Below, piece after piece: positions 28,916 through 29,622 of a DNA stretch of 64,000 nt. The notes below the pieces were generated by a model. That model worked only from the letters and a program-made list of their open reading frames with translations, was not told where the DNA came from and did not search any database. Each line of letters opens with the position of its first letter. The stretch's first letter is position 1. The stretch is from Eledone cirrhosa (taxonomy: Eukaryota), in assembly GCA_964016885.1 (NCBI GenBank), contig OZ024747.1, positions 39,680,001-39,744,000 on the forward strand, given 5' to 3'. Position numbers and translations under genes: made by a program.

Positions 28916-29622
28916 TTTTGAGTTTATGTTGGTTGTATACCAACACCTCAGTGTGCAGGCTGTAGCACTCGACGAAGTGCGCAGGTTGGTGTGGTTACTC
29001 AGGAGTAGTGTAAAATAAAGTTAAATAAAAGTCAAATGATTAAAATTTAGCTTCGTTTATTACTGCTATATATATTTCAGTGACAGCCATCTTTGGCTGT
29101 GAGCTCTTCAGGCAGTTTGAATTAGTAGGGTATAGACAAGTACATATGTTGTTTACGTGTATAATATTGTCAATACTCTGATATACCCAGTTCCTTGCTG
29201 GGTTGTTATTTCAATGAGGAACAATGATTAAAATCTAGCTTCGTTTATTACTGCTATATATATTTCAGTGACAGCGATCTTTGGCTGTGACCTCTTCAGG
29301 CAGTTTGAATTAGTAGGGTATAGACAAGTACATATGTTTTTTAGGTGTATAATATTGTCAATACTCTGATATGCCCAGTTCCTTGCTGGGTTGTTATTTC
29401 AATGAGGAACTGTTCCTCATTGAAATAACAACCCAACAAGGAACTGGGCATATCAGAGTATTGACAATATTATACACCTAAACAACATATGTACTTGTCT
29501 ATACCCTACTAATTCAAACTGCCTGAAGAGGTCACAGCCAAAGATGGATGTCACTGAAATATATATAGCAGTAATAAACGAAGCTAAATTTTAATCATTT
29601 GACTTTTAGTTAACTTTATTTT
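28916..29622. repeat. Hammerhead element array: two minus-strand units (188 bp period) plus one inverted unit
   Basis: HHRs at 29062-29116 (-), 29250-29304 (-) and 29518-29572 (+): ACUGC-CUGAAGA-stem II-GAAA-UAUAUA-UA-GCAGU. Confidence 0.88.

Follow-up and report, generated by a model that had tools for sequence, protein, structure and literature searches.

Short hammerhead-bearing relatives of PLEs

Short derivatives of Penelope-like elements (PLEs) that carry a hammerhead are already known as a class in other animals. The minimal type I hammerheads of metazoan PLEs have the core boxes, a short stem I, a long stem II and a short palindromic stem III, and they are mostly found as single dispersed motifs, with opposite-strand pairs 100-700 bp apart (Cervera and De la Pena 2014, PMC4209133). 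Animal retrozymes have been interpreted as derived from the terminal repeats (pLTRs) of PLEs, their monomers being scattered over the genome (Li et al. 2026, 10.64898/2026.07.22.740005; Cervera 2020, PMC7229834; Weinberg 2019). The insertions of PLEs leave a signature, which consists of partial tandems, adjoining inverted and 5'-truncated copies, an optional tail and a bias for (TA)n (Craig 2021, PMC8557442; Goubert 2022). The protein of the Poseidon element PAc cleaves AT-rich DNA and primes reverse transcription inside the RNA at an AC-rich stem-loop, which lies downstream of the hammerhead overlapping the ORF start; hammerhead cleavage is dispensable (Frangieh 2024, PMC11167929). The promoter of Penelope lies inside the pLTR (Schostak 2008).

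Here, we describe a repeat unit of about 310-325 nt at positions 28916-29621 of the window, i.e., the whole stretch of 64,000 nt of Eledone cirrhosa DNA that was analysed. The unit has the hammerhead anatomy and the dispersed or paired arrangement described for metazoan PLEs (PMC4209133), but it differs in being a carrier with clustered ends, in matching no Rfam model and in an activity that is predicted only. It shares with non-LTR retrozymes a short, non-coding sequence of low GC, a type I hammerhead, the occurrence of monomers and dimers and a proposed pLTR origin (Cervera 2020, PMC7229834; Li et al. 2026, 10.64898/2026.07.22.740005). Unlike them, it lacks a shared tandem monomer joint, has fixed linear ends and a tail, and is found in microsatellite targets. 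Chlamys elements such as MRC1 are comparable in being short, pLTR-forming, present in head-to-tail copies and reliant on autonomous PLEs (Craig 2021, PMC8557442). However, those elements are algal and mostly hammerhead-less, and their 3' ends match known autonomous partners, whereas none was found for the unit among 11 PLE 3' regions of the window. The 3' ends of Hydra-clade PLEs, including Hydra-1_Obim, resemble it in having a sense hammerhead 100-200 nt from the 3' end, a preference for (TA)n and inverted 5' copies (Craig 2021 supplement), but the unit is ORF-less and its stems are different. Five short motifs of the unit were sought in that supplement and none was found in its text, where line breaks can hide matches. 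Finally, PAc also has an ATG in the stem II region of its hammerhead, an AC-rich 3' stem-loop, two 3' end points and AT-rich targets (Frangieh 2024, PMC11167929). It differs from the unit in the length of the tail (30-40 nt versus about 95 nt) and in that the ATG frame of the unit is closed.

In the literature, we found no published description of this family; Repbase and Dfam were outside the scope of the search, and the supplements of Li et al. 2026 may list similar monomers. The accessible part of a repeat annotation of Octopus vulgaris reports 893 recently active unclassified SINE families and leaves ribozymes unmentioned (PMC13282606). The family itself is an added annotation, probably for one of many such "unclassified SINE" repeats. 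Its interest lies in the mechanism: with 310 nt, a high copy number and sharp joints, the element is a simple substrate for asking how the tandem and inverted structures of PLEs form, and whether the hammerhead matters.

Units, hammerheads and their surroundings

The locus contains three units that are 97% alike, two direct (u1 and u2) and one inverted (u3), with microsatellites on both sides (Table 1). Pairwise alignments give 5-6 differences per 188 positions, and the arms of u1 and u3 are 1 nt apart at the head-to-head apex. Copies are single, tandem or head-to-head and are embedded in simple (TA)n repeats. The solo, tandem and fold-back forms recognized by the initial annotation are borne out by the solo copy, by u1 with u2 and by u1 with u3, respectively. 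Of the traits of non-autonomous PLEs, a partial tandem, an adjoining inverted copy and an optional tail are present. The targets, as judged also from the read flanks, are microsatellites or AT-rich DNA, and there is no clear target-site duplication.

Table 1. Positions of the units, their flanks, hammerheads and terminal hairpins in the window
Feature	Position	Strand	Description
u2	28916..29222	-	complete, from GTTCC to the 3' end, including a tail of about 95 nt
u1	29410-29223	-	direct copy of the first 188 nt of the unit; head-to-tail with u2
u3	29412-29621	+	inverted copy of the first ~210 nt of the unit; head-to-head with u1; tail-less
Left flank	28802..28915		(TA)n, then (TAGA)n microsatellite
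Right flank	29622..29786		(TA)n, then (GA)n microsatellite
Solo copy	63583..63905	-	(TA)n on both sides; 9 additional bases (63905-63897) ahead of GTTCC
50095 family	50029..50203	+	175-nt insert amid (TA)n runs; near-identical hammerhead at 50095-50150
u1 hammerhead	29250..29304	-	type I; predicted cut after 29255
u2 hammerhead	29062..29116	-	type I; private G to C at 29103, in stem II
u3 hammerhead	29518..29572	+	type I; predicted cut after 29567
Solo hammerhead	63734..63788	-	its stem II is the best formed (z = -2.87); cleavage predicted after 63739
5'-terminal hairpin, predicted	29376..29412	-	8 bp, -11.4 kcal/mol; 5' arm holds GTTCC and the two preceding bases
3'-terminal hairpin, predicted	28920..28949	-	AC-rich 3' arm, directly ahead of the 3' end; solo predicted likewise

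From GTTCC on, the solo copy (63896-63583, minus strand) is 77% like u2 over 322 columns, and its upstream extension is non-microsatellite sequence. The insert around 50095, whose stems had previously been compared with those of the unit, matches it over the 67 nt of the hammerhead only. The likeness of its 5' part is not significant (56/1000 and 554/1000 shuffles score as high). Because of this restricted match, we assign it, on sequence grounds, to another (sister) family with the hammerhead alone in common.

The type I core, with CUGANGA, GAAA and an NUH cut site, is intact in all five copies, and the cut triplet is AUA. In each copy, stem I is 5 bp long, stem II has about 10 bp and a single C-C mismatch, and the 8-nt palindrome of stem III precedes AUA. 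Stem III counts 2 bp with the palindrome, and the combination with a short stem I and a long stem II is the PLE-type shape that was tested for. Stems I and III are invariant in 5/5 copies, as had been noted, but the variation previously placed in the loop of stem II affects the stem itself. There, one change is compensatory, two are one-sided and three cells are broken, the latter being private. Over the five sequences, 96.5% of the cells are paired in the alignment register versus 11-52% after sliding. Covariation is not in excess of shuffles (81/500 shuffles) in this comparison of only five sequences. The G10.1-C11.1 position is G-C in two copies and G-U in three, and about 40% of the reads have the C.

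A type I descriptor retrieved seven motifs in the window, four of them in the five copies and three belonging to other families; 60 full-length shuffles gave none. The copy that it missed is u2, because of its private change in stem II; at this position (29103) the reads have a letter other than that of u2 in 1974/2018 and 1675/1725 cases. Rfam gave no match in the window at the gathering score, and by E-value it gave hairpin-shaped chance matches only and no ribozyme family. A hammerhead pattern scan of metagenome, viral and prokaryote contig collections returned no match. Judged from its motif, the hammerhead has the anatomy of the minimal dimer-type ribozymes of metazoan PLEs, and its cleavage is a prediction. 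For the tandem of u1 and u2, folding predicts -60.2 kcal/mol for the dimer versus -53.3 kcal/mol for two monomers. The lowest free fold, in which both palindromes are paired, reaches -73.8 kcal/mol, so the active dimer is not the minimum.

The window contains other hammerheads. Type I motifs with different 8-nt stem III palindromes are found at 48109 (+) and 60453 (-), each about 200 nt or less from (TA)n, the second lying some 1.1 kb downstream of the end of a PLE ORF. Another family, at 16873-18396 and 52138-52486, consists of tandem units of about 421 nt and an inverted copy, has a type I motif at 17172 (-), and resembles a classical tandem retrozyme more than the unit at 28916-29621 does. 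An additional hammerhead-like family occurs at 6971-7079 and 52557-52958; one copy is a fold-back interrupted by another repeat, and the other shares its strand with a truncated PLE ORF (7039-7940) and lies immediately upstream of it. Close to the locus itself, a 406-nt direct repeat (96.6%) follows directly on the right, at 29786-30729. Inverted repeats of 179 nt (27860-28062/28518-28785) and 194 nt (26065-26258/27192-27385), 98-99% alike and of unrelated sequence, are also found nearby and are MITE-like or fold-back elements.

Ends and joints in the window and in read sets

We compared positions 28900-29250, at 80% likeness, with 4 of the 24 listed runs, leaving the other 20 unused; none of the 24 is recorded as RNA, which has no bearing on expression. 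The figures given here are those of the best-supported matches; 241 loose ends, 53 variants and 1969 pieces lie beyond them. In organism A, which may be the source species of the window or a relative, u2 is matched by 7096/12,467,656 RAD reads (run X22) and by 1964/16,285,364 contigs (run X1). Contig depth sums to two to four hundred thousand and is 5-17 for the rarest contigs, from which a family size of the order of ten thousand copies is suggested, an estimate that is depth-based and no direct copy number. Organism B has eight contigs in run X4, but it is not counted as a second host since 0/12,836,656 reads match in run X17.

The ends of the unit had been described as fixed, and this is accurate at 3'. 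There, u2 and the solo copy agree within 2-3 nt, in line with the similar ends previously noted at 28916 and 63583, and reads exit the unit at about 28916-28921, so that the end is fixed to a few bases. The 5' boundary is not one position, and the unit breaks off at position 188 in u1 and at about 210 in u3, in neither case at the 3' end of u2. The 3' flank in plus-mate reads is of TA type in 291/429 cases and of GA type in 135/421. The family sequence may extend to 28908, given that one read-set record matches 28908-28940 without difference. There are also hints of a second 3' end near 29029: u3 ends about 95 nt earlier than u2, in a T-rich tract, and at 29029 a comparable tract, with TA at its end, takes over in 23 X1 contigs. 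Within the tail, we noticed by eye that 28995-29008 is a palindrome in many copies, given the letter shown at 29001 by 942/969 plus-mate reads.

The initial annotation placed a common start at GTTCC, and all four units do align from it. However, the solo copy begins 9 nt further upstream, at 63905, and reads and contigs of organism A have this extension in common with it. At least 645 reads and at least 10 contigs depart exactly at 29222, the coordinate that had been given as 29223, with a common upstream start. The first nine letters of their upstream consensus equal the solo extension at 8/9. The consensuses of X1 and X22 agree over 13 letters and then diverge, and that of the X1 contigs turns palindromic after nine, as at a fold-back apex. 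How far copies run upstream is hidden in the best read set, X22, because letters 13-16 of its consensus are an AATT restriction site. Its upstream agreement of 0.67 is as compatible with nine shared bases that give way to (TA)n as with 16 shared bases and ligation chimeras.

Seven joints were seen among the matches listed, and in four of them the 5' part is head-to-head with another position. Three of these four are at exactly 29222, with partners at 29007, 29075 and 29096 and no shared letters; the remaining one is at 29209, with a partner at 28962. Since the window's own apex is placed at the same point as these three read joints, we conclude that GTTCC is a hot spot of internal joints and not the outer 5' end. 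The latter lies at least 9 nt upstream, and the inverted partners are variably 5'-truncated. Unit starts in the window are at 0, -2 and -9 relative to GTTCC, and with the reads they cluster within 10-16 nt. The template jumps proposed at GTTCC are supported by u2, by the u1/u3 apex and by the three independent read joints among the matches listed. Other parts of the earlier proposal need amending. The starts of u1 and u3 are one common fold-back apex, hence one event rather than two. A discrete RNA starting at GTTCC is not supported, given the at least nine additional upstream bases of most copies and the inverted partners joined at 28962, 29007, 29075 and 29096, and copies may continue further upstream.

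Several other candidate features were considered and rejected. Around GTTCC, the likeness to an initiator is too short to carry weight, and a downstream promoter element at the canonical spacing was not seen by eye. An HDV-like ribozyme cutting at GTTCC would have a P1-like pairing, but no P3/L3 was recognized by eye and Rfam found none. A Penelope-type intron ending at stem I would have its acceptor AG in the solo copy only (1/5). The depth peak of X22 at 29044-29123 could be taken for an 80-nt mini-element consisting of the hammerhead alone. It is a restriction-library chimera: AATT sites bound it on both sides (29044 and 29120) and do not occur elsewhere in the segment compared, the molecules start there (509 at 29120) and the loose ends agree at 0.34-0.39 only. 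In run X4, a 95-nt contig with a depth of 265 goes back 65 nt within 29078-29142, and the same joint is found in three X22 reads. What is repeated, in tandem or cyclically, is the 5' half of the hammerhead, and the cut site is not included.

Origin of the unit

We are confident that PLE machinery made the insertions. The PLE dependence put forward earlier is well supported by the anatomy, i.e., a dimer-type hammerhead, a partial tandem, an inverted 5' copy, an optional tail, (TA)n targets and the lack of ORFs. Our preferred reading, to which we give about an even chance, is that the unit is a short non-autonomous derivative of a PLE pLTR, with a separate short RNA template that is copied in trans. 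The reverse transcriptase and the GIY-YIG nuclease of an autonomous PLE would copy it into (TA)n and related microsatellites. If the biochemistry of PLEs is a guide, the nuclease would nick AT-rich DNA, and reverse transcription would run from the AC-rich 3' hairpin to the template's 5' end near GTTCC. At or near this point the enzyme may often jump to a second template, which would produce the partial tandem. Alternatively, the inverted copy could result from separate priming of the second strand. The ribozyme is predicted to cut only once two copies pair via the 8-nt palindrome, and insertion would not need this cutting. Copying by a PLE protein from the 3' hairpin, with jumps near GTTCC, is suggested by the PLE insertion signature together with the biochemistry of PAc and the pLTR-internal promoter of Penelope.

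The copies could instead be by-products of a full-length PLE. Priming would then occur at a hairpin inside the 5' pLTR of the mRNA and synthesis would stop at the RNA 5' end, generating fixed-length copies of the pLTR only and involving no small RNA. We regard this as rather unlikely, although several observations fit it. PAc primes internally at an AC-rich stem-loop downstream of the hammerhead (Frangieh 2024, PMC11167929), and the promoter of Penelope is within the pLTR (Schostak 2008). Four of the five copies have an ATG within stem II, 24 nt ahead of the predicted cut. Past 28908, three X1 contigs (agreement 0.96) and one X4 contig (124 nt) share one non-microsatellite continuation, in whose first 30 letters the tail frame stays open (by eye), for which the chance expectation is about 6 in 10. 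Against it, the frame opened by this ATG meets a stop 16 codons on in u2 and 13 codons on in the solo copy. The open frame of the tail has six replacement changes and one silent change in 23 codons between these two copies, hence no silent-site bias. The frames of the unit have no convincing match among 109 PLE proteins (best E = 0.022 in this 109-protein search). Neither a long ORF in the six frames nor the RT plus GIY-YIG ORF of autonomous PLEs is present in the unit. Finally, the 3' continuation, seen over 30 letters, could be a single shared insertion site, and it was not found in the window.

A related idea, which we also hold to be doubtful, is that PLEs copy their own 5' repeat at a fixed length, in the manner of a strong stop. 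A cDNA of 310 nt would extend from an internal hairpin of the upstream pLTR to the transcription start (GTTCC) and insert into (TA)n. With its own internal promoter, such a copy would have given rise to a SINE-like family that amplifies itself and has reached some ten thousand members in order of magnitude. If this were true, the hot spot of joints would mark the RNA 5' end, and the family would provide a genomic read-out of how pLTRs and inverted copies originate.

Could the copies simply be what ordinary 5' truncation leaves of an autonomous PLE's 3' end, with a hot spot of truncation and template switching at the 5' hairpin? We find this improbable as well. Most minimal animal hammerheads have been read as truncated PLEs (Cervera and De la Pena 2014, PMC4209133). 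Truncation of PLE ends is real in this genome, as the (TA)n-flanked fold-back at 47401-47603 corresponds, in truncated form, to the 3' end that a longer PLE has at 25458-25783 and 55107-55355. The family sequence that continues at least 9, perhaps 16, bases beyond GTTCC and the variable truncation of the inverted partners would also be expected. Yet, the independent starts in the window, three in all, lie within 10 nt of one another, and three of the four read joints, among the matches listed, fall on one base. There is no long common upstream sequence, the X1 consensus being palindromic after 9 letters and different from that of X22 after 13. In X1, no steady decrease in depth is seen between the tail (about 190-380 thousand) and the 5' half (about 250-400 thousand as far as 29187). 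In the RAD run, a drop in depth from 1226 (29198) to 765 (29213) may hide truncated copies.

A classical non-LTR retrozyme would involve a 188-nt monomer that tandem hammerheads release, with circularisation and rolling-circle copying to follow. Two hammerheads are indeed found in tandem 188 nt apart, a dimer fold is possible and the size is near the 200-400 nt of animal retrozymes (Cervera 2020, PMC7229834), but the tandem joint is nearly absent from the reads. Beyond 29223 the depth is 1.83 and 0 in X22 and 0.48 in X1, against about 700 just before in X22, so this joint is private to the locus. A joint going back 188 was not found among the matches listed for the three runs with coverage. 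Moreover, the solo copy, u2 and u3 extend beyond position 188, the ends are fixed rather than circularly permuted, and tandem arrays of one monomer were not seen, the only dimer being the private one. We consider this origin very improbable. A Pol III SINE like Sm-alpha of Schistosoma, mobilised by LINEs, is hardly credible: the unit is short, non-coding, high-copy and hammerhead-bearing and LINE remnants occur in the window, but simple patterns for A and B boxes match neither u2 nor the solo copy on any strand, no tRNA was found, nor, with Rfam in the window, a 5S/7SL-type head, a poly(A) tail is missing, and inverted and partial-tandem copies are the signature of PLEs. Both the circular retrozyme and the Pol III SINE fail the tested features. 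The term SINE-like, as first applied to the unit, remains apt for a short, non-autonomous element but not for one with A and B boxes or a tRNA head.

The derivation from a PLE pLTR that we prefer calls for an autonomous partner, and one with this pLTR was sought in the window. RT and GIY-YIG fragments are present there, but 0/11 PLE 3' regions match the unit beyond shuffles; the closest is equalled by 1/100 shuffles and is one of 22 tests. The window is dense in PLE remains. Pfam recognizes GIY-YIG in 3/19 fragments and RT in 3/19, one of the latter being a LINE piece. One fragment has 109 relatives, most of them annotated as RT and many as GIY-YIG, and several other fragments resemble Hydra-clade proteins by eye. 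For the PLE piece near the solo copy, the homologue search was empty at 1e-8.

Other remnants of the window deserve mention. The fold-back at 47401-47603 retains part of a hammerhead-like motif whose palindromic stem is long: the GAAA half is kept, and the first core box was not found. Decayed L1/Tx1-like LINE pieces lie on the minus strand at 2493-3626 and 39231-42737. Additional head-to-head fold-backs with (TA)n flanks are found at 9189-9423, 14451-14880 and 58258-58712, the last including a 99.7% perfect palindrome at 58323-58711.
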